The notes below the pieces were generated by a model. That model was not told the DNA's origin, ran no database searches, and saw only the letters and a list, made by a program, of their open reading frames with translations. The translations under genes were made by a program, and so were the position numbers. 64,000 nucleotides of DNA from an uncultured Chloroflexia bacterium (lineage in GTDB: Bacteria > Chloroflexota > UBA6077 > JACCZL01), in contig CAVXYC010000027.1 in the NCBI GenBank assembly GCA_963765765.1, forward strand, positions 160,001 to 224,000, read 5' to 3'. Of this stretch, positions 10,679 to 59,956 are shown in pieces; position 1 is the first letter of the stretch, and each line of letters begins with the position of its first letter.

Positions 10679-10730
10679 GCCTGGATGAGGGTGAGGAAGT
10701 GATTGATTGCTCACTCACCATCATCCAGGC
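10679..10730. terminator. Hairpin between convergent genes
   Basis: GCCTGGATGA-GGTGAG ... CTCACC-TCATCCAGGC inverted repeat. Confidence 0.55.
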
Positions 10731-10731
10731 A

Positions 10732-12211
10732 TCAAGCGTTTGCGGCTTTCAGCTCGCCGCTCCGACGTGGTCGCCAGGAAACTGCTCGCCTTATCACATC
10801 GTCCACCAACGGGCTTGCCCCAATGGTGAACACCAATAGGGGGAGCAACCGCGTTCCAAAGCGAACCGCGGTCTCCTCACGCAGGGCCAGATCCGTGCGA
10901 CCTGCCAGCAGGAAAGCGTAAAGAGCGATCACGTAGACCGTCGCGTTCATGAGTAGAGCCGCTGAGAGATACAGGCTCGGTGGGCGATCTGGCAGCCCGA
11001 GCGGTATGAGAAGGATCGCCAGGAGCATCACGTAGCCGTAGGTCTGGTTGTACTCGGGAAAAACAAAGCTCACGACCCTGACGAGCGTATTCAGATCAAT
11101 CGATCCGCGAGAGATCGCGGCGAAGACCATTTCCCCGAAGCCGCCGCCAAGATACGTGTCCCGACTGAGAGCGGCTCCCCAAAACATGCTCTTGAAGATC
11201 ACCCAAGGCGAAAAGGCGATGACGAGGCCAGCAACGGCGACGATCATCATCGTCGCGGCCTTCCATTGCCGGATCGTTAAGAGCGCAACGACGCCGAACA
11301 ATCCCAGGTTCATCAGCCCGAAGCTCAGTCCGTCGGGTCTCACAAGACCGGCCACGCCAAGAAGCAGCCCGGCGACCAGCGATAGCTGCACATCGCGGCG
11401 CTTCAATGCTGAAGCCGCGGTGAGCACCCCCAACCCGCCATAGGTTATGAGCGGAAAGTCGATGAGTGATTCCGTGCCACCCCAGAACATGAGAAGGCCT
11501 GCAATGAGCGTGAACAAGACACTCGTCGTAGCGGAGGCGAAGTCGCGAAGGCGGGCATGAAAGAGCGCTAGGAACGAAGCGAACATCGCCCAGCTCACGA
11601 GATGGTTGGGCGATGGATCGTCCGATCCGGTGAGCTCGTACAACCACGTCCGGCTCGAGGGGTACGAATGGGGGATATGTGCGAACGTCCTGCGTCAGCA
11701 TGCCCGACTCTCGCGTCACGCCGCCTTCATGGAAGAAGATCTTTGCCGCCAACATATGATGGCTGAGCTCATCCCAGCGCAACGTGGGTTGATACGTCGC
11801 GACGGCAAGATTCACCACCACAACAATTCCAATCGCGACCTTGAGCAGCCGGCTTAGTACAACGGAGCACAGCGATTGGTCGGCACTCGATGGGGGTGGC
11901 TCAGGCGAAGGCATCGACTCCGGGTGTGCGCCCTGCTGTTTCCTTCGCAGGATCACCAGGGGAACGATCGGCGCGCAAGCAATGAGAGCCGAGATGACAA
12001 ATAGCGGTGCCCGAGCGTAGCGCTGCCCGCTAAGCTGCCAACCGAGCATTGTCGCCACAATGAGAGCCAATCCCAGGAGATAGCCAAGGGCCAGCCGCTC
12101 TATTAGACGCGATCTCGGACGAATCAGTGTTGCCCAACCGAACCCGACGATGGCTGTCCAGCCAACCACCAACATGGCCAGCGTCCAGCTTCCGATTACC
12201 GAGCCGCTCAC
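10732..12211 (-). CDS. Polytopic membrane protein, GT-C/ArnT-like (frameshift near 11650)
   Basis: Joins ORFs 11096-12211 and 10732-11643; RWDELSHH, YPP and RPDG motifs with many TM helices. Confidence 0.6.
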
Positions 12212-13402: not shown

Positions 13403-16119
13403 CTACGCCTGCGTGAGCTGCCGAAGCACGTACTGAAGGATTCCGCCGTGTCGGTAGTACTCAATATCGATGGGACTATCGAGGCGCGCATCCGCTTTGA
13501 ACACGATTTCCGAACCGTCAGGGCGCCGAGCGCGAACAGTGAGAATCTTTCGAACGGTGAGTCCTTCGGCAATGCCTTCGATATCGAAGACCTCGTCGCC
13601 GTTGATCCCCAACGTCGTCCGATTCTCTCCTGGCATAAATTGAAGCGGCAGAATGCCCATGCCGACGAGATTACTGCGATGGATTCGCTCGTAACTCTCC
13701 GCGATAGCGACACGAATGCCCTGGAGCATAGGACCCTTGGCTGCCCAGTCGCGTGAGCTGCCCGAGCCATACTCCTGGCCGGCGATCACAACCAACGGAA
13801 CTCCGTCAGCCTGATACTTCATCGCGGCGTCGTAAATGCTCATCACCTCGCCGGTAGGCAGATACGTGGTGACGCCGCCCTCTGTGCCAGGAGCAAGTTG
13901 ATTGCGAAGCCGAACGTTGGCAAACGTCCCGCGAACCATCACCTCGTGATTGCCTCTCCGCGCCCCGTAGGTGTTGAAGTCCACTGGCTTCGTACCGTGC
14001 TCCATCAAGTAGCGACCAGCCGGCCCATCCGTTTTGATAGAACCCGCTGGGGAGATGTGGTCAGTCGTGATCGAATCTCCGAGTACCGCCAACAGCCGAC
14101 CGCCTCGAATATCTTTCAGCTCACCTGGTTCGGGGGTCAGATTGTCGAAGTAATTCGGTTCACGCACGTACGTTGAGTCTTCGTCAAAGCTGTAGAGGTC
14201 ACCTTCGGGCACAGGAAGTCCCTGCCAGACGGCATCGCCCTGGAAGACGTTTGAGTAGCGCGCCTTGAAGATCTCCGGGGAGATACTTCGCTCCATCGCT
14301 TCTCTGACTTCTTCTTGAGAAGGCCAGATATCGCGAAGGTACACGTCTTCGCCATTCTTCCCGGTGCCGATTGGCTCAGTGGTGAGATCGATGTCCACCG
14401 TGCCGGCGAGGGCGTACGCAACGACGAGTGGCGGTGAAGCTAGGTAGGACATCTTGACGACCGGATTGATGCGGCCCTCAAAATTCCGGTTCCCACTGAG
14501 AACCGAGGACATGACGATGTCATGCTCTTCACTCGCAAGAGCAATCGGGTCCAACACGGAGCCACTGTTGCCGATACAGGTGGTGCAGCCATAGCCGACC
14601 AGGTTGAATCGGAGCTTATCGAGATATTCCCAGAGTCCGGCCTTCTCGAGATAGTCGGTGACAACCGTGGAGCCCGGCGCCAGGCTGGTCTTTACCCAGG
14701 GCTTAGATTCCAGGCCGCGCTCAACGGCATTCTTCGCTAGGAGCCCGGCACCGACCATCACCGATGGATTAGTGGTGTTGGTACAACTCGTAATGGCGGC
14801 GATGGAGACCGCGCCATCGCCGATCTCCACCTGCTGACCTTCGATCGTTACCAGGGCCTTACGCGCCGTTACCTTCTCGGCGACAGCGGTGCCGCCGCCG
14901 CTGCTAGGAGTCGAGATGAACGTCGGTAGCACCGCGTCAAATCCGGCTTTCATGTCCGTCAGCGCCACACGATCCTGCGGGCGCCGGGGACCTGCCAGGC
15001 TAGACTCAACAGTACTGAGATCCATCTCCAACACTTCGCTGAAGATCGGTTCTGGTGAGGACGCCTCGCGGAAGAGTCCCTGCTCCTTGGTGTATCGCTC
15101 AACTAGATCAATCTGCTCAGGACTCCGACCGGAAAGAACCATATAGCGAAGGGTCTCGTCATCCACGGGGAAGAAGCCGCATGTTGCACCGTATTCAGGC
15201 GACATGTTGGCGATCGTGGCTCGGTCGAAGAGACTCAAATTATTCAAGCCCGGCCCGGAGTACTCGACGAACTTGCTAACCACACCGTGCTTACGCAGCA
15301 TCTGGGTGATTGTAAGGACGGCGTCGGTGGCCGTGGTGCCTTCTCGGAGCTGGCCGGTGAGACGGACACCTACGACTTGCGGCGCCAGCATGTAGAAGGG
15401 CTGGCTTAACATGACGGCCTCTGCCTCAATGCCGCCCACGCCCCACCCGAGTACGCCAAGACCATTGACCATCGTGGTGTGAGAGTCGGTTCCTACCACG
15501 GTGTCCGGATAGGCTTCCCGACCGCCGTTACCGCGCGCGTCTGGACGACGCTTGCCAGGTACTCGATATTGACCTGGTGAATGATGCCAGTACCCGGAGG
15601 CACCACCTGGAAATTCTTGAATGCCGTTTGCGCCCAGCGGAGGAACGCATAGCGCTCGCCGTTTCGCTCGTACTCTTTTTTGACGTTGAGTTCGAAGGCG
15701 TCATCGATGCCGTAGTAGTCGACCTGTACTGAGTGATCGATAACAAGATCCACGGGAACGGTTGGATTGATCTTCTGAGGGTCGCCACCCATCCGTTTGA
15801 CTGCGGAGCGCATGGCAGCGAGGTCTACGACACAGGGGATGCCGGTGAAATCCTGAAGGAGTGCGCGAGCGGGGCGGAATGGAAGCTCTTGTTCGGCAAC
15901 GCTCTTTGCGTTCCAGCGGGCCAGGTTCACTACGTCATCCTCGTTGACCAGGAAGCCGTCACAGTGCCGCAGCAGGTTCTCAAGCAATACCTTTATTGAA
16001 TACGGAAGTCGGCTCAGGTCGGCTTTATCCGAAAGCGCACCAAGCCGATAGATCGTGTAGGCCCCACCGCGCGTCTGAAGCGTCGTTCGGGCGCCAAATG
16101 GATTTGTCTCACCTGCCAT
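13403..16119 (-). CDS. acnA: Aconitate hydratase A (frameshift near 15533)
   Basis: LLQDFTG, DHSVQVD, (YPDT)VVGTDSHTTM, TSCTNT, GCTTCIGNSG, GSSRDWAAKG. Confidence 0.97.
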
Positions 16120-16131
16120 CAGGAGCTCCCC

Positions 16132-17235
16132 TCACACATCGATGCTCGCTATTGTACTTCGTTCTCTGGGCGCCAGTTCACCCGAGGATCGTAGGTCCGC
16201 GAGCGCCGCCACAAGCCGACGATTCTCACCCGGCCGACGTACTGCGATCCGGATGTATTCCGGCAATCCGAACGATTGGCAGTCGCGCACCAGCAAGGCG
16301 CGCCTGGCCAGGCTCAGCCGAACGTGTCGAGCGGAGCCGACATTTACGATCACGTAGTTGGCTTCGCCCGCCGAAACGTCCCAATGGCCGTTTTCGAGCG
16401 CTCGCACCAGTCCTGACTTCGCTTCTCGCACCTTCCTTAATGTTACGTCAAGATATGCTGAATCTTGCAGCGCGGCGATCCCTGCAGCCTGAGCGAGTCC
16501 ATTGACGCTCCATGGGGGGAGCTGGCAGCGGATCTGCGAGGTCAGGCTCGGGTGCCCAACGGCATATCCAAGGCGGAGCGCCGTGAGTCCGTAATCCTTG
16601 GTCATGGAGCGGACAATCAGAAGATTGCGTTGCTCATCTAGCAGTGATAGTGCTGATGGCGCGCCGCTCACGAACTGGATGTATGCCTCATCAAGGACGA
16701 CCACTCCGGACATCGCGCCCAGCGCCTGCTTTAGCCGGTCTGAAGGAATGAGCTCACCGGTCGGATTGTTTGGGTGACAGAGGAAGAGCAGCGACAGCTC
16801 CGCAAGGTCACTCATGGCGTCGTCGTCCTTTAGACCGATGGCGTGCACGGCCGCGCCGTTGGATCGAGCGGCGGCCTCATATTCGCCAAACGTCGGCGGG
16901 CAGTGACCCACACGGCTGCCCGGAGTAGCCCACGCTCTGGCGGCTGCGTAGATCAGCTCAGTGGCGCCATTGCCGGGGACGATCCAATCGGTTGGAAGAC
17001 CGTGGTGGGCACTCAACGTTTCCACGAGGTCAGTACACTCAACGTCCGGGTACCGATCCAGCCGAACTTCGTGCAACACCTTGCGAACCCGTGGGCTTGG
17101 TCCATAGGGGTTCACGCTGGCGCTGAAATCGATCACGTCATCTGGCGTAAGGCCCAAGGCACGCAGGTCGGCAGTGCGGACGCCACCATGCGCTTCACCG
17201 GCCGCGATGTGCGGATCAGCGGGCTTCGGAGACAT
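16132..17235 (-). CDS. PLP-dependent class I/II enzyme, CobD (threonine-phosphate decarboxylase)/HisC-like
   Basis: HGG...DFSASVNPYGP, HPNNPTG, DEAY, RSMTKDYG..LRLG. Confidence 0.8.
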   Translation of the reverse strand: MSPKPADPHIAAGEAHGGVRTADLRALGLTPDDVIDFSASVNPYGPSPRVRKVLHEVRLDRYPDVECTDLVETLSAHHGLPTDWIVPGNGATELIYAAARAWATPGSRVGHCPPTFGEYEAAARSNGAAVHAIGLKDDDAMSDLAELSLLFLCHPNNPTGELIPSDRLKQALGAMSGVVVLDEAYIQFVSGAPSALSLLDEQRNLLIVRSMTKDYGLTALRLGYAVGHPSLTSQIRCQLPPWSVNGLAQAAGIAALQDSAYLDVTLRKVREAKSGLVRALENGHWDVSAGEANYVIVNVGSARHVRLSLARRALLVRDCQSFGLPEYIRIAVRRPGENRRLVAALADLRSSGELAPRERSTIASIDV

Positions 17236-17335
17236 GCACTCGCGAACCTGCCGGCCCATTTGCTATTGTGATCAGCGGCGATTTCACGCCGGGCATGATC
17301 GAGATCGCAGCGATCACGAGAGGAGCCTTCTCCGA

Positions 17336-19180
17336 GTGAAAATCATTCTTTGCACAAAACAGGTCCCGAACGTTGAGTCGGTGGGCTTTAACGAAGAGAC
17401 TCGGACCATCGTCCGAGAAGGCGTGATGAACGAGATAAACCCGTACGATCGTCGAGCCCTGGGCATGGCCGCCGAGCTCAAGAAGAAGTTCGGCGGAGAA
17501 ATCGTCGCGGTTACGATGGGCCCACCGCAAGCCATTGACGTTCTTCACGAGTGCATGGCCGTTGGCGCGGATCGCGGGGTTCACCTATGTCATCCTGCCT
17601 TTGCCGGCTCGGACACGCTGGCAACGGCGCGGGCATTGGCAGCCTTCATTAAGAAGGAAGAGCCTGACCTCGTCTTCTGTGGAAAGTACAGCGTCGACGC
17701 TGAGACGGGCCAGGTCGGTCCCGAGCTTGCCGAGCTACTTGGAATTCCCCAGGTGACGGGCGCCACCAGCCTGGAGTTCGACGAGGCCGGCAAGAGGGCC
17801 ACGGTTGGTCGGGAGACGGATGAGGGCATCGAAACTGTTGAGGTCAACTTGCCCGTCCTGCTCACCGCCGCCGAGCGACTCATCCGCCCCCCACGCGTTA
17901 CGCCGGATGACATCGATCGCGTGAAAGACTTACCGGTGGAGCGTCTCACTCCTGCCGATCTCGGCCTCTCTCCTGAGGAAGTGGGATTCAAAGGGTCCCC
18001 CACCTGGGTGGCAGAAATCTATTCGGTGAAGCCCAACCGGCAGGGTAAGAAGATCGATGGTGAGGATGCCGAGAGTGCGAGTAAGGAGATCGTCGATCTC
18101 ATGCTTGCTCGAGGGCTCTTTGGCACCTGGGTTGGGGAGTCAGCTCCCCAACCCGTCCCCGCCAACTCCGCATCGGCCGACCCCAGTAAGAGCGTTTGGG
18201 TCGCGGCGGATATCGTGAACGACACGGTCAGCCCAGTCACGCTGGAGTTATTGGGCGGAGCTGTCGAGGTGGCAGGGAAGATCGGCGGTCAAGTCGCCGC
18301 GCTTCTCATCGGGAATGATGTCGCTAAATACGTCGACACACTCGCTGCATTTGGCGCATCTACGGTCTACCTGGCCGAAAGCTCGCGACTGGAATCGTAC
18401 GACACCGAGGCTCACACGGAGATTGTTTCGCGAGCGATCGAGACGCACAAACCGTGGGCGCTGCTGATCTCGGCTCACAGCAATGGTCGCGATTACGCTC
18501 CCCGCGTGGCAGCCAGGCTAGGTCTCGGCCTGACCGGTGACGCCGTAGGCCTGGACCTGGATGCCGAAGGGCGACTCCTGCAGCTCAAACCCGCGTTCGG
18601 CGGGACAATTGTGGCGCCCATCATTTCAAACACCTTCCCGCAAATGGCCACCGTGCGAGGTGGCATGCTGGATCCGAGGATCCCCGACGAGAATCGAGCG
18701 GCGGTCATTGTGAATCTGCCGGTCGACAACCTCCCGGATGCCCGCACTCAAGTGGTCGGTCGAGACGTGGAGGCCGGTGCCGCGGGTCTGGCATTGGACA
18801 CCGCCGATGTCGTGGTCTGCGCAGGCAATGGTCTTGGAGACCCATCGAACCTGCACTACGTGGATGAGCTGGCGCTGGTTCTGGACGGTGCCGTCGGAGC
18901 AACGCGACGCGTCGTCGACGCGGGCTGGCTGCCACGGCAGCAGCAGGTCGGGCTCACGGGCAAGGTCCTCGCACCGAAGCTCTACGTCGGCGTGGGCGTA
19001 CGAGGTGTGTTCAATCACACTATCGGTATCCAGCGAGCCGGCCTGGTGGTGTCCATCAACACCGACCCCGAGGCTCCCATCGTGGAGCACTCGGACTACA
19101 CAATCATCGGCGACTATCAAAAGGTCGTGCCGGCGCTGGTCTCAGCGCTCAAGGAAGCGCGGCTGGCGCGTAAGGGCTAA
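17336..19180 (+). CDS. Fused electron transfer flavoprotein beta-alpha
   Basis: GTG start with GAGGAG SD; EtfB (KQVP, NPYD, GSDTLAT, ETGQVG) then EtfA (PAFGG, QQVGLTGK, INTDPEAPI) in one frame. Confidence 0.92.
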   Translation: MKIILCTKQVPNVESVGFNEETRTIVREGVMNEINPYDRRALGMAAELKKKFGGEIVAVTMGPPQAIDVLHECMAVGADRGVHLCHPAFAGSDTLATARALAAFIKKEEPDLVFCGKYSVDAETGQVGPELAELLGIPQVTGATSLEFDEAGKRATVGRETDEGIETVEVNLPVLLTAAERLIRPPRVTPDDIDRVKDLPVERLTPADLGLSPEEVGFKGSPTWVAEIYSVKPNRQGKKIDGEDAESASKEIVDLMLARGLFGTWVGESAPQPVPANSASADPSKSVWVAADIVNDTVSPVTLELLGGAVEVAGKIGGQVAALLIGNDVAKYVDTLAAFGASTVYLAESSRLESYDTEAHTEIVSRAIETHKPWALLISAHSNGRDYAPRVAARLGLGLTGDAVGLDLDAEGRLLQLKPAFGGTIVAPIISNTFPQMATVRGGMLDPRIPDENRAAVIVNLPVDNLPDARTQVVGRDVEAGAAGLALDTADVVVCAGNGLGDPSNLHYVDELALVLDGAVGATRRVVDAGWLPRQQQVGLTGKVLAPKLYVGVGVRGVFNHTIGIQRAGLVVSINTDPEAPIVEHSDYTIIGDYQKVVPALVSALKEARLARKG

Positions 19181-19196
19181 GTTGCTAGGCGTGAGA

Positions 19197-19230
19197 AGGT
19201 CCTGCAACAGAAATGTTGCAGGACCTTTTT
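19197..19230 (+). terminator. Intrinsic terminator
   Basis: AAGGTCCTGCAACA-GAAA-TGTTGCAGGACCTTTTT. Confidence 0.9.
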
Positions 19231-19239
19231 GTACATTCC

Positions 19240-19398
19240 GTATGCAGGGGCCGGTCGTAGCCGCTGTAATACCGCAGTAGTGGCGATTCGTGACGGGCAT
19301 GAGCTCGAGAGTTAGTTCGCGAGCACGTGTGCGGAAATCTAGATTGCGCCCATGAGGGAACGCCACTACGTCGAGTCGTCGCCTCCAGACACTAGCTC
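19240..19398 (-). ncRNA. Candidate rod-shaped structured RNA (6S-like?), copy A
   Basis: GTAGTGGCG/CGCCACTAC 9-bp stem with nested and outer stems; TACGAT -10-like hexamer upstream on the minus strand; shares motifs with the 23.2 kb element. Confidence 0.4.
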
Positions 19399-19500
19399 AT
19401 CGTAGAGGGGACATTCTCCCCCGATTGAGATCCAACTGACGGAGAGATTCATCGAACTAGGCAAGCAGTCCCGCTCCCGAGGACGATCGGGTGAAATGGC

Positions 19501-19548
19501 CACACAGCAAGGAGCCTCGCGATGATTCGCGGGGCTCCTTGCTGTGTG
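19501..19548. terminator. Long hairpin ending the amt transcript
   Basis: CACACAGCAAGGAGCCTCGCGA / TCGCGGGGCTCCTTGCTGTGTG. Confidence 0.7.
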
Positions 19549-19570
19549 CTCGATTATCGAGAGGTCCAGA

Positions 19571-19702
19571 CTAGGCGGCCATTGCCTCCGGCTCAGCCAC
19601 CACAGGGAACATCTCGGCCGTGCCAGGCCGCTCGGGAAGGCCGAACCACATGAGCAACTGTGCAACGAATCCGATGAGTGCAACTGGGATGAGTGCGTCC
19701 AT
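19571..19702 (-). CDS. Small single-TM protein (43 aa) downstream of amt
   Basis: MDALIPVALIGFVAQLLMWFGLPERPGTAEMFPVVAEPEAMAA; AGAGG SD. Confidence 0.6.
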   Translation of the reverse strand: MDALIPVALIGFVAQLLMWFGLPERPGTAEMFPVVAEPEAMAA

Positions 19703-19736
19703 GTCAGTAAACCTCTCTTGAACCTTTCCGAATCTA

Positions 19737-20966
19737 CTACCCCTGGTATGCCAGCTCGCCGTGCTGGCTACGGTCGAGGCCGAGTACCTCTTCTTCTTCA
19801 CCAACCCGTAGGCCGATGGTCGCGTCGATCACTTTCAGCAGGACAAACGTGACGCCGCCTGCGTAGACCCATGTGACCGCGACCGCCGCGATCTGGATGA
19901 AAAGCTGTCCAGGATTGCCGTAGAGCAGGCCGTCCACGCCAGCGGGATTCACGCTTGTGGTTGCGAATACGCCCGTGAGAATGGCGCCCAGCGTTCCGCC
20001 AACGCCGTGCACACCCCACACATCGAGCGAATCGTCAACACCCAGCTTGGACTTGAGCTCAACAGCAAGGAAGCAGACCACACCAGCGGCGAGGCCGATG
20101 ATGACCGCCGCCGCGGGAGTTACGAAGCCCGCTGCCGGCGTAATGGCCACCAGACCAGCCACCGCTCCGATGGCGGCGCCAATTGCGCTGGGACGACCTG
20201 TCCGCGCCCAGCTCATGGTCACCCACGTTACCGCGGCCATTGCCGCTGCGGTATTCGTGGCGACGAAGGCCGAGGCGGCCAGTCCGCCCGCCGTCAACGC
20301 AGAACCAGCGTTGAATCCGAACCAACCGAACCAGAGCAGCCCCGCGCCAAGGATCGTCATGGTGGAGTCATGCGCATCCATGCTGGCTTCGCCGAAGCCA
20401 ATGCGACGACCAAGGATCATGGCCGCGACAAGCGCAGACACGCCTGAGCTAACGTGCACCACGGTGCCACCAGCAAAGTCCAGGGCGCCCATCATTCGGA
20501 TCCAACCGCCGACGCCCCACACCCAGTGGGCAAGCGGGTCATAGACGAGAGTGGCCCAGAGGAGCGAGAAAATCGCGAAAGCCTTGAAGCGCTTGCGTTC
20601 GGCGAATGCACCCGTAATCAGAGCGGGTGTGATGACCGCGAAGGCCATCTGGAAAGCCATGAATGCAAGGTGCGGAACCGTTGCCGCGTAATCTGCATTT
20701 GGCTCCTGGCCTACACCGTTAAGACCAATCCAATCGAGACCGCCAATGACGCCGCCCACATCGGGGCCGAACGCCAGCGTGTAACCCCACAGGACCCACT
20801 GAACGCTAACAAGGCACAGTATGAAAAAGCTGTGCATGATCGTAGCGAGCACGTTCTTTTGTCGAACGAGGCCGCCATAGAAGAAACCGAGCGCTGGTGT
20901 CATGAGCACGACAAGTGCCGTCGACATCAGAAGCCAAGCCGTATCGCCCGAGTTTATCGCATCCAA
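19737..20966 (-). CDS. amtB: Ammonium transporter
   Basis: [37 protein letters not shown]; probable TTG start at 20966 after a GGAGGG SD. Confidence 0.96.
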
Positions 20967-21266
20967 CAGGATTCCCTCCGTCGCATTCTCTGGTTCGGCA
21001 CGGCTTCGTGCGCTCTGCCCATGGTCAGCGTTCTTGACCAAGAGCCAAGCACCAGATGTTGTTGCTAAGAGTAACGTTGGACCGAGGTTGGAGCCATCGT
21101 ACAAGTACGTGGAAAATGAATGGCCATCCTCTGTGCACACTGCACAAAGGCGGACCATTGTGTTCGATCTCGGGTTTCAGATGCTCGAGCCGTGGAGAGA
21201 GCTACGCCGAGCCGGGTTCGTCGAAGGTTTATCCAGAAGAGGCGCAGCTCATCTGGAAGACGAAAG

Positions 21267-22679
21267 CTATGAGCCGACAGCGAACGCGGCAAATGGATAA
21301 TCGCTGTTCTCCATTGCCTTCATAAGCCTTTCGGCAGAGATCGTCCGTGATGAACCGGGACCGCGGGAGTCAATAGGATCGTGATAGATGAACCGATCGC
21401 CAGCGTAGCCTGTAACGACCACGTAGTGATCGCCCCAGTAGTCGGACCCTTCGCGGCCGCTGAGAAATCGGTACATCACCTGCGGGATCACAGCGCGACC
21501 ATCACGTAGTTGGGCACGCATTTCCTCAGCGGACCAGCGGTGAAACCCGCTCTGCCCGCTCTCGAACAGCCCGAGCGTGCGTGCACCATGCTCATCTGCC
21601 ACCGCCGCAAGATGCTCGATGAACACGCCGCAGTCATCGCATCGATCGATATTCTGGTAGCTCAACGCCTCTGAACGGAGAACCGCAGGAGACGGCACCC
21701 CGGCGACCCGGCCCTGGAGCGCCATCCACAACACCGCCGGCCCACAGTTTGCTGCCTCATAGGATGAGCCGTCTAGCTGCGTCCGGTATGGCACTCGCAG
21801 CCATGCGTCGGGCTCCTGATCCCGCACCAGATCACGCGTCACGGAATACTCCGTGTATTCTGACGGATCGCGCGGTGTCGCCAGGACATCCTCACCATCG
21901 ATCCAGGCGTCCAGAGGTTCGCCATTGTCAGGACGAGCAGCCAGAAAGACGTGCGCCCAATCTCGGCCGGACGTCTCCCGGACCTCAAGATATGTCCTTG
22001 GCGGGATGGCGAGAGCCACAGGCGCCGATTCGGTGGGACTGGTTCGGAGTATTGCCGACGAGCGCGTGCGAACGAACTTCGGCCAGACGGCCTCAGCCGT
22101 GTCTGAGACGTCTAGCCACGCCTCGCCGGGCCGCTTGAGCTCCTCATCTCCGGAGTAAAACACGCGGAACCGATTGCCCTGACGATCGAGCACGCGGACA
22201 GTGGTGGCTTGAGGAATCTTTGTGAAATCAACGCCGCCATCTGCCGCCGACCACAATGCGGACTCTCGAGTGAGTCGGAGCCATCGAGGCAGCTCTCCAG
22301 TCAATCGCGGACGTGCCGGAGCAATGGCCGGCGGGTTGAGTGCGGGAGCCGACGCACCAGGCTGATGGGATACATCGGCTGGCGGCGATACTTCAGCGAG
22401 CGGGGATAGTTCAAGCGGCGGTAATACATCAGCTTGCGCGGATACTCCCACTTCCGCCGATATATTGGCATACGATTCTGGAATTGACTGTAGGTCTTGA
22501 GGACTTGCCGCGAAGGTCTGCGGTGTTTGATCCTCGTACGCATGGCCTGCAAAAGAGCCGTCATCTTGTTGCCAGGCTGCAAGACGTCCCGCTAATAGGA
22601 ACCCCGAGAGGACCGCAATCACGATAGTTATTGGTCCAACAAGCTGCCGCGGACGTATCGTCCGCCCTGTCCTATCCAT
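21267..22679 (-). CDS. Membrane-anchored/secreted C39-like cysteine peptidase with SH3-like repeats
   Basis: VPYRTQ..ANCGPA (Cys), DHYVVVTG (His), HDP (Asp); N-terminal TM and Pro-rich linker. Confidence 0.75.
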   Translation of the reverse strand: MDRTGRTIRPRQLVGPITIVIAVLSGFLLAGRLAAWQQDDGSFAGHAYEDQTPQTFAASPQDLQSIPESYANISAEVGVSAQADVLPPLELSPLAEVSPPADVSHQPGASAPALNPPAIAPARPRLTGELPRWLRLTRESALWSAADGGVDFTKIPQATTVRVLDRQGNRFRVFYSGDEELKRPGEAWLDVSDTAEAVWPKFVRTRSSAILRTSPTESAPVALAIPPRTYLEVRETSGRDWAHVFLAARPDNGEPLDAWIDGEDVLATPRDPSEYTEYSVTRDLVRDQEPDAWLRVPYRTQLDGSSYEAANCGPAVLWMALQGRVAGVPSPAVLRSEALSYQNIDRCDDCGVFIEHLAAVADEHGARTLGLFESGQSGFHRWSAEEMRAQLRDGRAVIPQVMYRFLSGREGSDYWGDHYVVVTGYAGDRFIYHDPIDSRGPGSSRTISAERLMKAMENSDYPFAAFAVGS

Positions 22680-22785
22680 AGACCGATTCTCGGTGTCCCG
22701 ATGCTCCTGTTCAAGTACGTATGTACGGGGGAAAAATCGCGCAGGCTGATTAGCCTGCGCGACTTGCCCACGCCTTGAGGTCCGA

Positions 22786-23050
22786 CTAGTTGCTGTTGTC
22801 GTCCGGCTCACTGATAGAATCAGCCCAGAAGAGCTTTTCATTCTCTTTGTAGCCGCTCACCTCAACATAGTCACGAACTTTCACGCCACTCTGCTTGATG
22901 AGGAACGGCGCGTCCTTACCGTAGAGCTTCACGGTGACAGGTCGGTCTATGTTGGCGAGAATGATCTCGTTCGGCTCGACCAGCGTACGCCGCGAGGGCC
23001 AACGCCAGGAGCGCAGACAGGCCACCGGACCTCGTCAACGACCGCTTCAT
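22786..23050 (-). pseudogene. Small secreted protein, frame-disrupted
   Basis: GGAGG SD plus MKRSLTRSGGLSALLALALAAYA signal peptide; continues in another frame as LVEPNEIILAN...FWADSI. Confidence 0.5.
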
Positions 23051-23205
23051 CGATCCCTCCAATATGGACTGGTCGACTTCTTAAGCACTTCTGCCGCGTA
23101 ACCACCAGTCCATCTTCGGGTAGCCTACGCCCACCCAGAAAGTTGCGCATGCGTACTCTACCATTAACGGGCCCTGTGAGGAATAGTTGCTCCTCAGTCG
23201 CAATT

Positions 23206-23347
23206 GCTCAGAATCAGGGGCCGGTCATCGTAACGTGGAGCGCCACGAGACATGGAATTCGGGCATGTTCACTGCGCATGCGCCAGCTCGAGATCCAGGC
23301 ACAGGGGACGAGCCCAGTACTACAATCGGCCGCCCCTAATTCTGAGC
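23206..23347 (-). ncRNA. Candidate 6S-like rod RNA, copy B
   Basis: GCTCAGAAT/ATTCTGAGC closing stem extends about 25 bp; central bubble with small hairpin; apical stem; TAGAAT -10 at 23352-23357 (minus strand). Confidence 0.5.
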
Positions 23348-23420
23348 TCTCATTCTAGTCTGGCATCACGACTTCGTGAGAGATGCGCGCCTCCTGAGAC
23401 CTGCAGAAACGTGCCGATCC

Positions 23421-25096
23421 CTACTCAATCGCGAAGATGATGGCGGTGCCATCTCGATAAACGATGCGCATCCCGGGGTCCGCCGCTGCAACATCGTAGA
23501 AGGAATAGTGATCGCGATCGGTGAGCACGATCTTGCTTCCGAACGTGTCGCGTATGAGGCTGGATGGCAGGTCAATTTGACCTCGCGTAATGGCGCGCCA
23601 GGTGAGGTAAAGGTCAGGCTGGTATTGGTACATGTACGTGGGGTCTAGACCGATTAGATACGTGTTGTGCGTGTTCTGATAAAAGAGCACCGGAAAGTCG
23701 TCCCAATCCGTAGTGAAGACGCGAGATCCGGCCGGCGTGTTGCCTCCAGCCACTGACCGGCCCCCGCGAACGTATCCGCGGATCGTGAGGCACGCGCCGA
23801 ATTCTGAGCAGAGGTAATGGTAGGCCGCAGCAACGCAACGGTCCCTGCCAGGAGCAGCACCCAGGCAAGAGCCCATAGCCCTGCCTGGACTGATCGTGGC
23901 ACGCGCGCTCGAATTCGCTCTCGAAGCACACTGGGAATTTGAAACGACCAGGCGAATGCGCAAAAAAGAACGGCGAACGCAGGTTGATACTCCACAAACC
24001 TACGTGAGCGGAGAAGCAGCACGGTAAAGAACGTGGCAAGGAGCGCCAGTGCGACAACTCGTCCATCCCAGCGTCGTTCGTACCGTAATGTTGCGATTAG
24101 CGGAATGAAACCAACCGCTACCGCGGCCAGAGAAGCGCCCGCGGCCCGTAGGAGCGCCGAGCGTTCGTACGGGTACCACTCATTACCCACGCCGACGATG
24201 AAGTCCCCGACCGGCACTAACTTGGGCAGCGCATGTTCGATGGCGAAGGTGAGGCTGCGCGGCGTGTAGGGATTAACGATCAAGCCAAGAATCACGCCAG
24301 CCGTCGCAAAGCCCAGGAGCGATAGATGCGGCAAGTTTCTTCGCACCAAATCTCGAATGGCCCCCCGTCCGGAGAAACTCACCTCACCGCGCACTGCGAC
24401 GGAGAGCCAGCGCAACGCCCGTCCATAGACCCCGTCATCCACCCAGCGTCCCAGCATGAGGAACGCAGCCACGATCATGAACAACAAAAACCCGTCGTAA
24501 ACCCACGAGAACACAAACCCCGTGAGGAGGGCGAATCGGTCACGCCGTGAGAAGGCGACTACGATAAGGGCAACAAACAGAATCAATACGATCGCCTGCC
24601 GGCGCGTCATGCTCAATCGATAGAGAAATGCCCCGGATACTCCTAATAGCAGTAGCAGCCAGAGAAGGCTCCAACGCACCCGCTGCCAGTACATCAGCCC
24701 GTAGACGACGAGCGCGGCGATACTTGCGAACGAGGCCGCGGCCAGCTTTGCGCCTAATCGCAGATCGAGAAGCGTGAACGGCTCCAGGAGAATATGGAAG
24801 AGTAAATGGTGATCGGTGAATTGGGCTGGATTCAAGATGGTCAACTGAAGCCACGGGAAATAAATCGGCGCCGGGATCACGTTCTGGCGCATGATCTCGG
24901 CGATTTTTATGTGGAAGTAGCCATCAACTCCCATGATGTTCGGTGTCGACCACTGGATCTCGCTGAAAATCAGCGCGACACACAGAATCGCGGGCGTCAT
25001 TTTGAGCCACGACTCTCTCTCGAGGAGCTCAGAAAGCCAGTCCAACAGGCTCGTAAAGGTTGCGGACTTGGATGTAGAAAGCTCGGATTCACTCAT
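23421..25096 (-). CDS. Polytopic membrane protein, GT-C-like (frameshift near 23745)
   Basis: DGYFH, GNEWYP, SRRFVEY; C-terminal VFTTDWDDFP..GLDPTY segment in a second frame. Confidence 0.65.
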
Positions 25097-25221
25097 AGCA
25101 CTGTTGAGACGTGCGAGCCCGCATGGCTGAGGCCACAGCATCAAGGATACGGGATGTGCAATGGGCTATTCGCATGACTAGCGAAATACCGCGGACGGCC
25201 AGTTTAACAACGAGAGGGAAG

Positions 25222-32940: not shown

Positions 32941-32994
32941 CTCACAAGAGCCGTAGATCGAGGTCGCTACGCGCTCCACGGCTCTTGTGATGAG
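32941..32994. terminator. Hairpin, probable bidirectional terminator
   Basis: TCACAAGAGCCGT ... ACGGCTCTTGTGA. Confidence 0.6.
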
Positions 32995-36709: not shown

Positions 36710-39700
36710 CTACCGATACAGCCAAACCCGCATAAGTGAGATGAGCTGATCAATGTCGACCGGCTTGGTGATGTAGTCGGATGCGCCGGCCTCAATGCAC
36801 TTCTCTCGGTCCCCCTTCATCGCCTTGGCGGTAAGAGCAATGATCGGCAGATTGGCAAATCGGTCGTCAGTCCGAATATGCTGGGTCGTTTCGAATCCGT
36901 CCATCTCCGGCATCATGATATCCATGAGGACGATATCGGCGGGTTCGTCGGACTGAAGCGCTTCGATACCGTCACGACCGTTCTCAGCGTACGAGATATG
37001 CATCCCGTAGCGCTCCAGGGCACTCGTGAGCGCAAAGATGTTCCTCATATCGTCATCAATGATCAGCACGCTTCGACCTTGCAGGGCCGGATCAAGCCGC
37101 TGAGCGTCTCTGAGGAGCTTTCGCTTTGACTCGGGAAGACGCGCCTCAACACGGTGCAGGAACAGCGCCGTTTCATCGAGCAATCGCTCCGGAGACTTGA
37201 CGTCCTTCACGATGATGGTCTCTGCAAGTGAGCGCAGCTCGGATTCTTCCGCGCGTGTAAGCTCCTTGCCCGTGTACACAACGATAGGAACTGCGACATC
37301 GACATCGTTCTTGATCCGCTGTATGAGCTCAAACCCCGTCATGTCCGGCAGTCCGAGATCGAGCACAACGCAATCAAAGCGCTCATCGGACAGCGCTTGA
37401 AGTGCTTCGGCACCGGTCTGAACGCCGACCACTCGAACATCATCATCGGCAATAAGCGAGATGATCGCGTTCCGCTGAATGTCATGGTCCTCCACCACCA
37501 GCAGGCTACGAAGATCTCGATCTACGAATCCGATAAGCCGATCGAACGCGGCGCCCAGCGTCTCTTTCGTCACCGGCTTCTGGAGATGCGCGATGGCTCC
37601 CTCCTGTAGCGCCCGCTGCTGGTGCTCGTTCGCAGTGATCACGTGAACGGGAATATGCCTGGTAAACGGATCGTGCTTGAGGAGATCTAGAACCTTCCAT
37701 CCGCCCAGCTCAGGAAGCTGGATGTCCAGCGTGATGGCATCGGGTTGATATTCACGCGCCAGCGTCAACCCGACTCGGCCGTCCAGGGCGACGAGGCCGA
37801 GGAAACCCCTCTCTCGCGCAGCAGTCAGAAGAATGCGGGCGAACGCGGCGTCGTCCTCAATGATGAGGAGCACACGATCACCCGCGTTAATCTTGGCACG
37901 ATCGTCATCGAAGTGAGGCGCTTTATCATCCGGCGGGCCGTCACCATCCGAGGTGACGGCACCAGATTGCTGACCACGCGCTGCGGGCAGAACCGGCGTC
38001 CGGTTCGAGCACCGGCGCCGTTCGGCCACGATGATCGCGATGCGGGTCACTCGAGATAGATTCAGGTCGATTCACCACCGCGACGGGCTCTAACGATATT
38101 GGGATATAGAGGGTAAACGTGCTGCCCTGATTGCTGTGGCTAACGAGTCCGATCTCGCCACCCAGCAGCATGGCGATCTCGCGGCTGATGGACAGGCCCA
38201 AGCCGGTGCCGCCGAATCGGCGACTCGTATCCATGTCAGCCTGCTGGAATGCTTCGAAGATGGTTGACTGCTTTTCAGGCGGAATTCCGATTCCGGTATC
38301 CCTCACAGAGAACGCTACGACCGAACGCGCCCGGTTGAGGGTCTCCTGGCTCTCACTCCAACCGCCATCGGCCAGACCGATACGGAGATGTACTCCACCT
38401 GTGTCGGTGAACTTGAATGCGTTGGACAACAAGTTTTTTAAGACTTGCTGGAGTCTGGTAGCGTCGGTCCAGAGGGCCGTGGGCAGGGCAGGGTCCACTT
38501 CAACGTCGAAGTCCAGCGCACGTTGCAACGCTACCTGGCGGAATGTCCGTTCCACCTCATCTCTGATCTCGGCGAACCGAACCTGACCGATATCGATGGC
38601 CGTTGTGCCAGATTCGATCTTGGAGAGATCAAGGATGTCGTTGATCAGGGTAAGGAGGTCATCACCCGCCGACCGAATCGTCTCCGCGAATTCAACCTGC
38701 TTCGGCGTGAGGTTGCCGTCGGGATTATCCGCGAGCTGCTGCGACAGGATCAGAAGGCTGTTGAGCGGGGTTCGCAGCTCATGCGACATGTTCGCCAGGA
38801 ACTGCGATTTGTATTTCGACGTCAGCGCGAGCTGCTCGGCTTTGAGCTCCAGATCGCGACGCGCCTCCTCGATCTCGCGACGACGGCGCTCCACCTCTTC
38901 ATTTTGCTCGGAGAGTAGTCGCGCCTTTTCTTCTAGCTCGAGGTTCGTTTGCTGAAGCTCTTGCGTGAGTGCCTGCGACTGCTTGAGAAGCTCCTCGGTA
39001 CGCAGGTTAGCGACAAGCGTGTTGAGCACGATCCCGATGCTCTCGGCGAGCTGGTCGAGCAGCGAAAGGTGCGACTCGCTGAAGGGCTCGAACGAGGCCA
39101 GCTCGATGACGGCGCGGGTTTCCCCTTCGAAGAGCGCCGGAAGCACCACGATGTTCAGCGGAGCCGCTTCGCCGAGGCCGGAGCTCACACGGATGTAGTC
39201 CGCCGGCAGGTTAGTGAGCAACATGCGCTTGTGCTCTCGGGCACACTGACCAACCAGCCCCTCGCCGAGCTTGAAGTACCGCGGGAGATCGTCACGCCCC
39301 TGGTAGGCGTAGCTTGCAAGGAGGTTCAGGGTTGGCTCGCCATCGATGATCTCGTTGAGATAAAACGCGCCGTGCTGAACCCCGACTAGGGGAGCAAGCT
39401 CAGAGAGAATGAGCCGGCCCACCGTCTGAAGGTCCCGCTGGCCTTGCAGTAGGCTACTGAACCTGGCGAGATTGGTGTTGAGCCAGTCCTGCGCGGTGTT
39501 CTTCTGCGTCGTATCACGCAGATTGCGGATCATCTCGTTGATGTTGTCCTTCAGCAATGCCACTTCACCCTCGGCTTCCACCTGAATAGAGCGCGAGAGG
39601 TCGCCTGAGGTGACCGCGGTTGCCACCTCGCCAATAGCCCGAAGCTGGGTGGTCAGAGTGGCCGCTAGCTGATTCACGTTGTCCGTGAGATCGCGCCACG

Positions 39701-42700
39701 TGCCTGCGGCGCCAGGAACATTGGCCTGGCCGCCCAACTTGCCTTCAGTACCCACCTCACGGGCCACGGTCGTGACCTGGTCGGCAAAGGTGGCCAACGT
39801 CTCAGTCATGCTGTTGATCGTGTCCGCCAGCTCAACGATTTCGCCCTTAGCTTCGAACGTCAGCTTGCGCTTCAGATCGCCGTTGGCCACAGCCGTTACG
39901 ACGCGAGCAATACCACGGACTTGTTCCGTAAGATTGCCGGCCATCGTATTCACGGAGTCGGTCAGGTCTTTCCAGGTGCCGGCCACCCCGCGCACCTGGG
40001 CCTGACCTCCGAGTCTGCCTTCCGAGCCCACCTCGCGAGCCACGCGGGTGACCTCTGATGCAAACGAGTTGAGCTGGTCGACCATCGTATTGATGGTGTC
40101 TTTCAGCTCGAGGATCTCCCCGCGCACATCCACGGTGATCTTCTTGGAAAGGTCGCCGTTCGCCACGGCCGTGGTCACAGTGGCAATATTGCGAACCTGG
40201 CTGGTCAAATTTCCGGCCATCATGTTGACCGAGTCGGTAAGGTCCTTCCAGGTGCCAGCAACGCCAGGTACGTTGGCCTGGCCGCCCAGACGGCCGTCCG
40301 TACCGACCTCGCGAGCCACGCGGGTGACCTCCCACGCAAATGCGTTGAGCTGATCGACCATCGTATTGATGGTGTCCTTCAGCTCCAGGATCTCCCCGCG
40401 CACATCCACGGTAATCTTCTTCGAGAGGTCGCCATTGGCCACGGCCGTGGTCACCTCGGCAATATTGCGAACCTGTCCAGTGAGATTACCGGCCATCATA
40501 TTCACGGAGTCGGTGAGGTCTTTCCAGGTGCCTCCCACTCCACGAACATCGGCCTGGCCGCCGAGCTTGCCTTCGGAGCCCACCTCGCGAGCAACGCGCG
40601 TGACTTCGGACGCGAATGCATTGAGCTGATCGACCATCGTATTGATGGTGTCTTTCAGCTCGAGAATCTCACCCCGCACGTCGACCGTGATCTTCTTGGA
40701 GAGGTCTCCATTAGCCACGGCGGTGGTGACTTCGGCAATGTTTCTCACCTGGCTCGTGAGATTTCCCGCCATGGTGTTCACCGAATCGGTGAGGTCTTTC
40801 CAGGTACCAGCTACGCCACGGACCTGCGCCTGCCCGCCCAGTTTGCCTTCGGAGCCTACCTCGCGGGCGACACGTGTCACCTCGGAGGCGAAGCCGTTGA
40901 GCTGGTCCACCATCGTATTGATGGTGTTCTTCAGCTCCAGAATCTCGCCGCGCACGTCCACCGTGATCTTCTTGGAGAGGTCGCCGTTAGCCACGGCCGT
41001 CGTGACGTCAGCGATGTTGCGGACCTGACTGGTCAGGTTGCCGGCCATCATGTTCACCGAGTCAGTCAGGTCCTTCCACGTTCCGGCGACGCCGGGAACG
41101 TCCGCCTGACCACCGAGCTTGCCTTCCGAGCCGACTTCTCGAGCAACGCGCGTGACTTCAGAAGCGAAGCCGTTGAGCTGGTCGACCATCGTGTTGATGG
41201 TGTCTTTCAACTCCAGGATCTCTCCGCGCACATCCACCGTGATCTTCTTGGAGAGATCGCCGTTGGCCACCGCGGTGGTCACGTCGGCGATGTTCCGCAC
41301 CTGGCTAGTTAAGTTACCGGCCATCGTATTCACGGAGTCGGTGAGATCCTTCCACGTCCCGCCGACATCGCGAACGTCGGCCTGGCCGCCCAGCTTGCCC
41401 TCCGAGCCTACCTCGCGTGCCACGCGCGTCACCTCGGACGCGAATGCGTTGAGCTGATCCACCATCGTGTTGATGGTGTCTTTCAGCTCCAGAATCTCCC
41501 CCCGCACATCCACCGTGATCTTCTTGGAGAGATCGCCGTTCGCGACAGCCGTAGTCACTTCCGCGATGTTCCGTACCTGGCTGGTCAGGTTGCCGGCCAT
41601 CATATTCACGGAGTCGGTGAGGTCTTTCCAGGTGCCTCCGACACCTCGAACATCGGCCTGGCCGCCTAGCTTTCCCTCCGAGCCGACTTCGCGCGCTACC
41701 CGGGTGACTTCCGAAGCGAACCCATTGAGCTGATCGACCATTGTATTGATGGTGTTTTTGAGCTCGAGGATTTCTCCGCGCACGTCCACCGTGATCTTCT
41801 TGGAAAGATCGCCATTAGCGACGGCGGTCGTGACTTCGGCAATGTTGCGCACCTGGCTGGTCAGGTTGCCGCCCATGGTATTGACGGAGTCGGTGAGGTC
41901 TTTCCAGGTTCCGGCTACCCCGCGCACTTCGGCTTGACCACCGAGCTTGCCTTCCGAGCCGACTTCTCGAGCAACGCGCGTCACTTCTGATGCAAATGAG
42001 TTGAGCTGATCCACCATCGTGTTGATGGTGTCTTTCAGCTCCAGGATCTCTCCCCGCACATCCACCGTAATCTTCTTGGAGAGGTCGCCGTTCGCGACAG
42101 CCGTGGTCACTTCGGCGATGTTCCGTACTTGCGCGGTGAGATTGCCGGCCATCATGTTGACCGAGTCGGTGAGGTCCTTCCAGGTGCCACCGACGCCGCG
42201 CACATCCGCCTGACCGCCGAGCTTCCCTTCGGATCCGACCTCGCGTGCCACGCGCGTCACCTCGGACGCGAATGCGTTGAGCTGATCCACCATCGTGTTG
42301 ATGGTGTCTTTCAGCTCCAGGATCTCTCCACGCACATCCACCGTAATCTTCTTCGAGAGGTCGCCGTTGGCAACGGCGGTGGTCACCTCAGCGATGTTCC
42401 GTACCTGGCTGGTCAGGTTGCCGGCCATCATGTTCACCGAGTCGGTGAGGTCTTTCCAGGTACCCGCGACGCCGGCCACGCTGGCCTGTCCGCCCAGCTT
42501 GCCCTCAGATCCAACTTCGCGAGCCACCCGAGTCACTTCCGACGCGAAGGAGTTGAGCTGATCGACCATTGCGTTTACGGTCTTGCTGGAGCGGAGAAAC
42601 TCGCCCTTCAGGGGGCGCCCATCAATCTCATCGGCCATGCGCTGCGAAAGGTCGCCGCGCGCTACTGCTCCGAGCACGCGACCGACTTCAACGGTGGGCT

Positions 42701-43007
42701 TGGTCAGATCGTCGATCAACAGATTGACGTTCTGGACATTGCCGGCCCAGGCTCCCCCAACCTCACCAAGCGTGGCGCGCTGGCCGATGCGTCCATCGCG
42801 TCCTACCACCTTCGATATGCGCTCCAGCTCTTTAGCGGTGCGTTGATTCAATCCCACCAGGTCATTGAAGGCCGTGGCGATCTCACCGGAAATACCCGTG
42901 TGGCTGAGCGGCAGGCGGACGGAAAAGTCGCCGCGTTGTACTGAACGAAGCGCCGCGAGCAATTGTCGTTGATCAAGTTCGTCAGAGAGCGCTACGGCCG
43001 TGGACAC
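36710..43007 (-). CDS. Poly-HAMP/GAF hybrid histidine kinase with three receiver domains (frameshift near 38045)
   Basis: About 11 x 92-aa HAMP repeats, [23 protein letters not shown], then three REC domains in ORF 36710-38050. Confidence 0.92.
39600..42580 (-). repeat. 276-bp tandem HAMP-coding repeats
   Basis: [10 protein letters not shown]-type unit recurs 11 times with 92-aa period; copies differ at synonymous sites. Confidence 0.93.
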
Positions 43008-45820: not shown

Positions 45821-45905
45821 TTGGTGGTGTCGGGCAAAATGCCCGACAGTTTGCCGCCGAATAAAAGATGAGTCCGCTGTCGGGCAAGATGCCCGACACT
45901 ACCAA
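45821..45905. repeat. REP doublet (REPIN/BIME-like)
   Basis: Two copies of TGTCGGGCAA(A/G)ATGCCCGACA flanked by TTGGTGG / CTACCAA. Confidence 0.7.
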
Positions 45906-46767: not shown

Positions 46768-46919
46768 TCAACATGATTGGAGCGAGTGTAACGCACGTGC
46801 GCGAAGGGTCCTGAACCGTGTCAGGTGGGCTTGACGCGGAATCGCCGGGTTCCTTAGACTGGCCCCGTCGTTCATGGACTGAGCGAACGTTTTGCAATCA
46901 GGGGCGATCCTACTTCCAT

Positions 46920-47050
46920 ATTGCCGAATCTCCCGTACGCGGGAGAGCGGGGGAACCATTTTCCTGGGGTGAATCGCGAGGAGGCCCTCTGAGGTCCATC
47001 GCGGCGGGCTAATCTCTCTGTCCGAACCCGTCAGCTAACTCCGCAGGCAC
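46920..47050 (+). promoter_or_regulatory. c-di-AMP (ydaO/yuaA) riboswitch
   Basis: GCCGAATC...GAGCGGGGGAACCA..TGGGGTGAAT...CCGAACCCGTCAGCTAACTCCGCAGGC matches the ydaO consensus blocks. Confidence 0.92.
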
Positions 47051-47103
47051 ACACGTCATAGACGTGCAATTGAGAGAGGGGTAGCGTCGGTCGACACGAG
47101 TTG

Positions 47104-52122: not shown

Positions 52123-52292
52123 GATGCTCTCCGAGAGTGGGGTCGACCCGCCCTGGGACCGCGGCCGTCGAGGCCGCATCCCCCATCGGCGAACGATTAG
52201 GCCAGGTGGCTGCCTCGACGGCCAGGGGATGGCCGGGACGGCCGCGGTCCCAGGAAGAACCCACCTTGCGGGGCATGACCATCCGGGGCATC
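52123..52292. ncRNA. Candidate structured RNA with mutually exclusive helices
   Basis: 18-bp perfect inverted repeat, a competing 12-bp inverted repeat and an outer stem. Confidence 0.4.
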
Positions 52293-55269: not shown

Positions 55270-55370
55270 AAGCTCCCTCGCCCTCTGGGAGATGGCTGGG
55301 ATGAGGGTAGGCTGACGTCCGCCACCGCGAGCCCCTCACCCCGAACCTCTCCCAAAGGGCGAGGGAGCTT
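55270..55370. repeat. REPIN-like inverted repeat element
   Basis: AAGCTCCCTCGCCCTCTGGGAGA..GATGAGGG ... CCCTCACC..TCTCCCAAAGGGCGAGGGAGCTT. Confidence 0.7.
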
Positions 55371-57564: not shown

Positions 57565-57634
57565 GGTTAAGGGAAGAGTTAAGAGTTAAGGCTGCGCATT
57601 GGTTTCTTAACCTTAACATTCCCTCTTAACTCTT
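57565..57634. repeat. TTAA-heptamer inverted-repeat element between convergent genes
   Basis: GGTTAAGGGAAGAGTTAAGAGTTAAG ... CTTAACCTTAACATTCCCTCTTAACTCTT. Confidence 0.65.
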
Positions 57635-59726: not shown

Positions 59727-59728
59727 GA

Positions 59729-59956
59729 CTAACCGTCGACTTCCGAAGCGCCGGCTCCCCGGGTTGGGATCAGGTGGACACCGTGCCGTGCCATCGCATT
59801 GCCAGTCCATGCGCCGCCGACTGTAATGAACAAGGCGCCGGGTGCCACGAGGAGCGCGGCGTGTGAAAGCACAGCCCATGTTGTCATGACGATGCCGACC
59901 ACCGTGAGCACGATAGCGAGACCGAGCTCGATGCGTGGGTGCTCAATTAGTGACAT
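59729..59956 (-). CDS. Small 2-TM membrane protein
   Basis: 75 aa, two hydrophobic helices, abuts the FadF-like gene. Confidence 0.6.
   Translation of the reverse strand: MSLIEHPRIELGLAIVLTVVGIVMTTWAVLSHAALLVAPGALFITVGGAWTGNAMARHGVHLIPTRGAGASEVDG

Follow-up and report, generated by a model that had tools for sequence, protein, structure and literature searches.

Two candidate small RNA elements with common motifs and layout in a Chloroflexota genome

Two intergenic elements and their promoter-like signals

Two intergenic elements, hereafter A and B, were analysed in a 64-kb stretch of a Chloroflexota genome, referred to below as the window. Their limits, 19240–19392 for A (153 nucleotides, nt) and 23206–23347 for B (142 nt), were set by end pairing. 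Each is a candidate small RNA that is likely, but not finally, assigned to the minus strand. The original prediction had singled them out as diverged members of one family of non-coding RNAs, possibly decoys of RNA polymerase of the 6S type.

Along the window the locus consists of fused etfBA (17174–19180, plus strand), a hairpin at 19196–19230, element A, a hairpin at 19501–19548, amtB, a gene for a C39/SH3 peptidase, a small gene, element B and a membrane protein gene with an end at 23421; all genes after etfBA are on the minus strand. The fused etfBA gene encodes the ETF beta and alpha subunits in one open reading frame (ORF), with two ETF domains and an FAD-binding domain. The first hairpin, with 14 base pairs (bp) and a T tract, is the etfBA terminator; it follows the minus-strand 3′ end of A at a distance of about 12 nt and could work in both directions. 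The second, with 22 bp, follows amtB, is probably its terminator and separates amtB from the promoter region of A.

The elements share sequence blocks that were all found where they had been predicted. The 12-mer CAGGGGCCGGTC, with only two exact copies in the window, is located at 19245–19256 in A, where it provides one side of the inner end stem, and at 23215–23226 in B, where it takes the same place in the end stem. It is accompanied by CGGGCATG (at 19294 and 23260), AGCTCGAGA (19302 and 23285), ACTAC (19365 and 23319) and GCC(T/C)C (19381 and 23332). Neither element contains a credible ORF, as had been claimed. Element B is inside a plus-strand frame of 202 codons free of stops that for most of its length has no usable start, and a short-peptide reading of the elements was rejected because A and B carry the shared blocks in different reading frames. 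What had looked like a third copy (58627–59081) and like a shared leader (687–1056) both turned out to be coding DNA.

The minus-strand −10-like hexamers that had been reported are present, and GAG follows each: TACGAT (19404–19399), 6 nt before the end stem of A, and TAGAAT (23357–23352), 4 nt before that of B. Neither has a good −35 element, and a consensus promoter scan called neither of them as a full sigma70 promoter and called no terminators. An ATCTC motif, noticed post hoc, stands 27 nt upstream of both hexamers (19427–19431 in A, 23380–23384 in B); among 109 TAnnAT sites, these two are the only ones with it. The two promoter regions are identical at 16 of 33 ungapped positions. Of all 5886 pairs of TAnnAT sites, 61 match this likeness, or 195–374 when other lengths are compared. 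About 95 nt of free upstream room are available to A between the two terminator hairpins, on the minus strand only. Both elements have a hairpin about 10 nt beyond their minus-strand end; for B it is a 6-bp hairpin without a T tract at 23177–23196, about 9 nt behind the 3′ end. Taken together, the arrangement of hexamers and end stems, the promoter regions and the gene layout suggest stand-alone transcription from the minus strand, as had been proposed.

The only match to an Rfam family elsewhere in the window is a cyclic di-AMP (c-di-AMP) riboswitch (46912–47064, plus strand; 89.6 bits), which is followed by a terminator and precedes a gene for a secreted CAP/YkwD-like protein. Its promoter is clear, TTGACG-18-TAGACT at about 46831–46860, and since this promoter has TAGACT, TAGAAT would be credible as a −10 element in the same organism. 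The start of the riboswitch leader (46897–46906) is identical over 10 nt to a portion of an end-stem arm of B (23212–23221, plus strand), probably by chance. Inside B there is also a second minus-strand TACGAT followed by GA (23227–23232), identical to the hexamer upstream of A; from it a separate transcript could run in the direction of the small gene.

This small gene (22786–23050, minus strand) starts at 23050 with a ribosome-binding site and a signal-peptide-like sequence and is frameshifted near 23000; for its 3′ part, neither a Pfam-type search nor a search for sequence homologues returned a match. Since B lies 155 nt upstream of it on the same strand, and another secreted protein in the window is under riboswitch control, B could act in cis as a leader of the minus-strand genes downstream, those for the C39/SH3 peptidase and the small secreted protein. 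However, no co-oriented gene follows A, a separate extended −10-like site (23155–23163) lies between B and the small gene, and no riboswitch model matches B. We consider a cis-acting leader highly improbable.

Folding and the choice of strand

The elements had been predicted to pair their ends into irregular rods. End pairing held fully for B, where a 16-bp end stem (16 of 16 positions on the minus strand, pair probabilities of 0.84–1.0) closes three hairpins, and less firmly for A, where 10 of 12 positions pair with probabilities of at most 0.49. The two end stems run in the same register, inward from a conserved U-G pair of the minus strand. The rod did not hold: the folds of lowest energy branch, and a minus-strand rod without branches costs 6.2 kcal/mol in A and 5.6 kcal/mol in B. 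Element A also has a long helix of its own (arms 19277–19298 and 19348–19369; 77% complementary, with a perfect 9-bp core).

Several features bear on the strand. The promoter motifs, the upstream room, the downstream hairpins, the outer end stems and two short helices, which have five of five pairs in both copies and form fully only on the minus strand, all favour the minus strand. Against this stands a shared helix of 12 positions (TGG..TTCG..GGC/GCTCGAG) with 11 pairs in both copies on the plus strand. In A it spans 19281–19314, holds CGGGCATG and AGCTCGAGA and has only 7 of 12 pairs on the minus strand; in B it spans 23253–23297, has 9 of 12 pairs on the minus strand and carries in its loop a 17-nt insertion relative to A. 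The two copies of the helix have the same A-A mismatch and differ by two changes from G-C to G-U and by one double change.

The RNAs may be real and related but transcribed from the plus strand; this helix would then be the main arm of a multi-way junction, with a closing stem at the ends. Its common mismatch and double change fit such a structure, as do an inner end stem with 8 of 10 and 10 of 10 pairs on the plus strand, a joint folding energy that is lower on the plus strand (−12.2 versus −7.8) and the minimum-energy fold of B, which is this very structure. On the other hand, no plus-strand −10 element precedes B, A begins only about 10 nt from the etf terminator, and the plus-strand fold of A itself leaves its ends unpaired (probability 0.0). 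Forcing A into the plus-strand fold of B costs 14.5 to 26 kcal/mol, which argues against this structure and against a common fold in general. On balance, a plus-strand pair is unlikely and the minus strand is clearly the more probable of the two, although the plus-strand helix conflicts with it.

Likeness of the elements and searches for relatives

The kinship of A and B was assessed against several backgrounds. Local alignment of A with B scored 77. Only 4 of 5000 shuffles attained this value, but so did 8 of 5044 slices of the window. The chain of shared blocks was reached by 1 of 20,000 shuffles of B. Further comparisons were made within a set of 21 intergenic stretches (420 pair-orientations), in which two partly coding stretches were kept. 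With words of at least 8 nt, the A/B pair with its three long blocks ranks first of the 420 pair-orientations, and the family-wise P value is 0.05; for minimum word lengths of 7 and 6 it is 0.99 and 1.0.

Features beyond the blocks were evaluated with the blocks held fixed and the remaining sequence permuted. Both elements then had TAnnAT and an end stem in the same orientation with P = 3e-4 under criteria chosen post hoc, namely TAnnAT 4–7 nt before a stem with at least 10 of 12 pairs that ends beside the 12-mer. Looser criteria gave P = 0.005 (TAnnnT), 0.004–0.07 (9 of 12 pairs) and up to 0.25 at the loosest.

A number of results weigh against common descent. The block chain was equalled by 53 of 117,306 tile pairs of the window outside a repeat-rich kinase gene, and with chains of 5-mers the A/B pair ranks only fourth of 420, with shuffled intergenic sets routinely reaching an equal maximum. 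The plus strand of the window contains AGCTCGAGA six times. Beyond the three blocks, the two sequences are no more alike than expected by chance: 1572 of 5000 shuffles were as good, and chance genome hits, which as controls share the blocks by construction, scored as well in 44 of 117 cases against A and in 17 of 117 against B. Searches with nhmmer from A or B did not find the other element at E-values up to 10, and A went undetected by covariance models of both strands of B. Units of a hexamer plus a stem number four in the real intergenic set and about two per shuffled set. While B is more stable than its shuffled versions (z-scores of −4.2 on the plus and −4.4 on the minus strand; none of 200 shuffles as stable), A is not (z about −0.5 to −1.0). 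In A, thermodynamics favour none of the shared folds; a consensus minus-strand fold costs 9.3 kcal/mol in A and 6.2 kcal/mol in B, so that there is no preferred common fold, and joint folding with 1000 permutations gave P = 0.07 for the plus strand, 0.03 for the minus strand and 0.07 (71 of 1000) for the better of the two.

These results are what would be expected if B alone were a real structured element, a small RNA or a leader, and if its likeness to A, a spacer or an unrelated RNA between terminators, were due to chance: the difference in stability, the lack of similarity outside the blocks, the failure of models from B to detect A, the mostly non-significant family-wise tests and the repeated occurrence of AGCTCGAGA all point that way. 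A chance likeness, however, does not account for the 12-mer at the same place of a same-register end stem, for TAnnAT-GAG at the right distance in both elements or for the two independent sets of helices that are possible in both. We regard it as rather unlikely. Sequence similarity alone is barely evidence of kinship; it is the common layout, TAnnAT-GAG, the same-register end stem and the hairpin behind it, that lifts the pair above chance. Judged from these partly post-hoc tests, A and B are probably related, on whichever strand. The predicted paralogy is thus plausible from the layout and moderately supported, with profile and covariance searches from one element missing the other.

The elements could also be decayed mobile DNA, i.e. 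miniature inverted-repeat or repetitive extragenic palindrome (REP)-like elements, with the stems being terminal repeats at the DNA level and the mismatches neutral transitions. Terminal inverted repeats are indeed present (27 nt and 78% complementary in B; 10 of 12 positions in A), wobble mismatches appear about equally on both strands, as in neutral decay, and further long intergenic inverted repeats occur in the window. The original prediction had named many dispersed copies as the mark of such an element. Within the 64 kb only the two copies were found, and no target-site duplication was seen beyond at most 2 nt (four offsets per element). No transposase is encoded among the window proteins scanned, promoter-like motifs common to both elements extend beyond the repeat ends, and exact islands in otherwise unalignable sequence would be atypical of neutral decay. 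A mobile origin is therefore improbable.

A scan of a genome collection with the three-block pattern, which is too loose to serve as evidence of absence, returned at least 118 loci in unrelated high-GC taxa. Among the 118 listed, 116 sit in frames that run for 150 or more codons without a stop, and none has the ACTAC..GCC(T/C)C tail. A hidden Markov model search over all of them gave nothing below an E-value of 7, and the B model run over 83 of them gave one match (E-value 0.2). Searches of plasmid and phage collections with blastn yielded no real match to A or B. That no homologue of either element was recovered from plasmids, phages or, with so loose a pattern, genomes was weighed against the pair, but does not refute conservation.

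Searches of Rfam 15 at gathering thresholds and at E-values up to 10 produced only noise in both elements. ARAGORN found no tRNA or tmRNA likeness. The Chloroflexi-1 motif (RF01698, PMC2864571), likewise an orphan structured RNA of this phylum as far as that source describes it, does not match A or B at E-values up to 10. No motif of this kind is named in the available text of PMC11109978, PMC4779614, PMC8632094, PMC12306157 and PMC2864571, or in that of bioRxiv 10.64898/2026.10.21.760802, which reports 5.14 million intergenic clusters. The A/B motif appears to be absent from the passages covered by the literature search, which did not extend to the supplements of motif surveys, and the clusters of the bioRxiv study may already hold A and B unnamed.

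Comparison with known RNAs and proposed function

The suggestion that A and B are 6S-type decoys was examined in some detail. Like 6S RNA, they are stand-alone and highly paired with the 5′ and 3′ ends in a closing stem, and two copies per genome are known for 6S, as the paralogues of Bacillus subtilis illustrate (described in PMC8414754). In other respects the likeness failed. Between their stem ends both elements are shorter than the range of about 160–200 nt given for 6S RNA in the same article (PMC8414754); measured to the downstream hairpins they reach about 200 nt (A) and 170 nt (B), and their true ends may differ from the stem ends. 6S is a rod with a central bubble, whereas A and B are branched. 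When folded as rods, B is free of loops as large as 8 nt, and in A only 7 bp lie beyond a 22+3 loop, compared to 25–29 in Escherichia coli 6S. Inspection of the folds by eye for the start of product RNA, which by the description in PMC8414754 lies in the bubble with an upstream A and GG at positions 4/5 or 5/6, gave no clear picture: candidate starts with GG at positions 4–6 seemed to lie in paired regions or to be without an upstream A. A home-built 6S model from six gammaproteobacterial sequences, with a partial Acinetobacter copy left out, gave 2.4 bits for B, through the end stem only, and at most 0 bits for A. Twelve of the retrieved loci contained no 6S RNA that could have served as a reference. 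Genes typically next to 6S (5-formyltetrahydrofolate cyclo-ligase; rarA/uspA; tRNA-Arg/hpt in Dehalococcoides) are not beside A or B, whose neighbours are etfBA, amtB, the C39/SH3 peptidase and the membrane protein.

Some block likeness to 6S was noted in B. Its minus strand contains the best site of the window for positions 24–41 of E. coli 6S and the third best for positions 80–92, at matching positions. Over all choices of blocks, 4–20 of 1702 tiles were as good as B against enterobacterial 6S; the figure rises to 418 of 1702 without Enterobacterales, and the likeness is absent in A. We treat it as a weak lead. On the plus strand, A also bears some likeness to E. coli 6S (37 of 1000 shuffles as good), which was attributed to chance: in local alignments it was significant only for E. 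coli and Lelliottia and in global alignments only for those and Acinetobacter, it was seen neither by the block test nor by the model, and it is on the opposite strand from that of B.

The negative outcome of the Rfam search is weakened by the putative 6S RNA (sRNA1) of Dehalococcoides mccartyi, 187–188 nt long, which according to PMC12961961 also matches no Rfam family. In strain CBDB1, sRNA1 is located at 588900–589086 of NC_007356.1, on the plus strand. Like sRNA1, sRNA2 and sRNA3 of that organism, as they are described there, A and B belong to the same phylum, are intergenic, would be monocistronic, have a −10-like element of the sigma70 type and lack an Rfam match. Compared by description only, the three RNAs are longer (187–188, 210 and 311 nt, respectively; PMC12961961), and sRNA1 lies between genes for tRNA-Arg and hypoxanthine phosphoribosyltransferase, neither of which is beside A or B.

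Two other classes are relevant. Ms1 and CoRP of Actinobacteria are described as structured RNAs of particular lineages that bind RNA polymerase but escape 6S searches (PMC9130861, PMC11077062). They offer a precedent for a polymerase-binding mechanism and likewise soften the negative 6S result; Ms1 itself, at about 300 nt (PMC9130861), is longer than A and B, neither of which matches an Rfam entry. The Y RNAs YrlA and YrlB resemble A and B in size, in the long end-pairing stem and in often being two RNAs close together (PMC4201824). By the criterion given in that source, bacterial Y RNAs are encoded no further than about 4 kb from a Ro60 orthologue. No TROVE/Ro60 protein was found by a Pfam scan of the ten proteins around the locus or among the window proteins scanned, and neither ARAGORN nor Rfam revealed a tRNA-like domain in A or B. 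A Y RNA identity was excluded on these two grounds. Nor should A and B be filed as 6S RNAs; at most they may resemble 6S decoys in their action.

We propose that A and B are related stand-alone small RNAs with weak promoters of the housekeeping type, stabilised by a closing stem and acting in trans through protein binding, and we give this proposal an even chance. Each would be transcribed from the minus strand, under a promoter with TAnnAT followed by GAG, a poor −35 element and ATCTC 27 nt upstream, with predicted starts near 19392 (A) and 23347 (B). The transcript would end at the hairpin about 10 nt downstream or be trimmed back from it, which puts the predicted ends near 19240–19196 and 23206–23177, and its 5′ and 3′ ends would pair into a closing stem that stabilises the RNA. 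The invariant islands GUAGU, UCUCGAGCU, CAUGCCCG and GACCGGCCCCUG may form a surface for protein binding rather than an antisense seed, because they are short and sit among segments that vary freely. Action in trans would then consist in titration of a protein. The likeliest single partner would be the housekeeping RNA polymerase holoenzyme, in a 6S-like manner; as it stands we hold this to be doubtful, and if the pair is real its chance rises to about one in three.

More broadly, and tentatively, A and B could be the first members seen of an undescribed multi-copy Chloroflexota family with a closing stem and a branched core, jointly regulated through a common ATCTC-N22-TAnnAT-GAG promoter, and possibly a short, non-rod counterpart of 6S or Ms1 in function that sequesters polymerase in this lineage. 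Hardly any non-coding RNAs have been characterised in Chloroflexota, and Rfam does not detect the only 6S candidate reported there. An orphan RNA family with two copies and promoters of its own would, if real, be a target for studying how this phylum throttles transcription, and a branched polymerase decoy of 140–150 nt would widen the known shapes beyond 6S, Ms1 and CoRP. If the pairing of A with B is due to chance, B alone is left as one more unannotated hairpin element.

Several further features of the window were recorded. All named relatives of the C39 peptidase encoded between A and B are labelled Chloroflexota or Chloroflexi; close relatives reach 73–96% identity over the peptidase domain. 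Genes for membrane proteins, an aconitase and an Fe-S oxidoreductase are split by frameshifts (10732–12211, 13403–16119, 23421–25144 and 57634–59879), which suggests uncorrected indels in the assembly; single-base details of the elements may consequently be off. Long intergenic inverted repeats are located at 55270–55370, 45821–45905, 52152–52254, 10679–10730 and 32942–32990; the first two resemble what we take to be the REP-like palindromes of many environmental bacteria. A hybrid sensor kinase of 1688 amino acids (37941–43007, minus strand) has about 12 internal repeats and is followed by genes for a response regulator, a CheR-like protein and a kinase. Finally, outside this genome, the 3′ portion of the host 6S RNA gene turned up in duplicate form in prophages and plasmids of Acinetobacter, which would fit integration at that gene.

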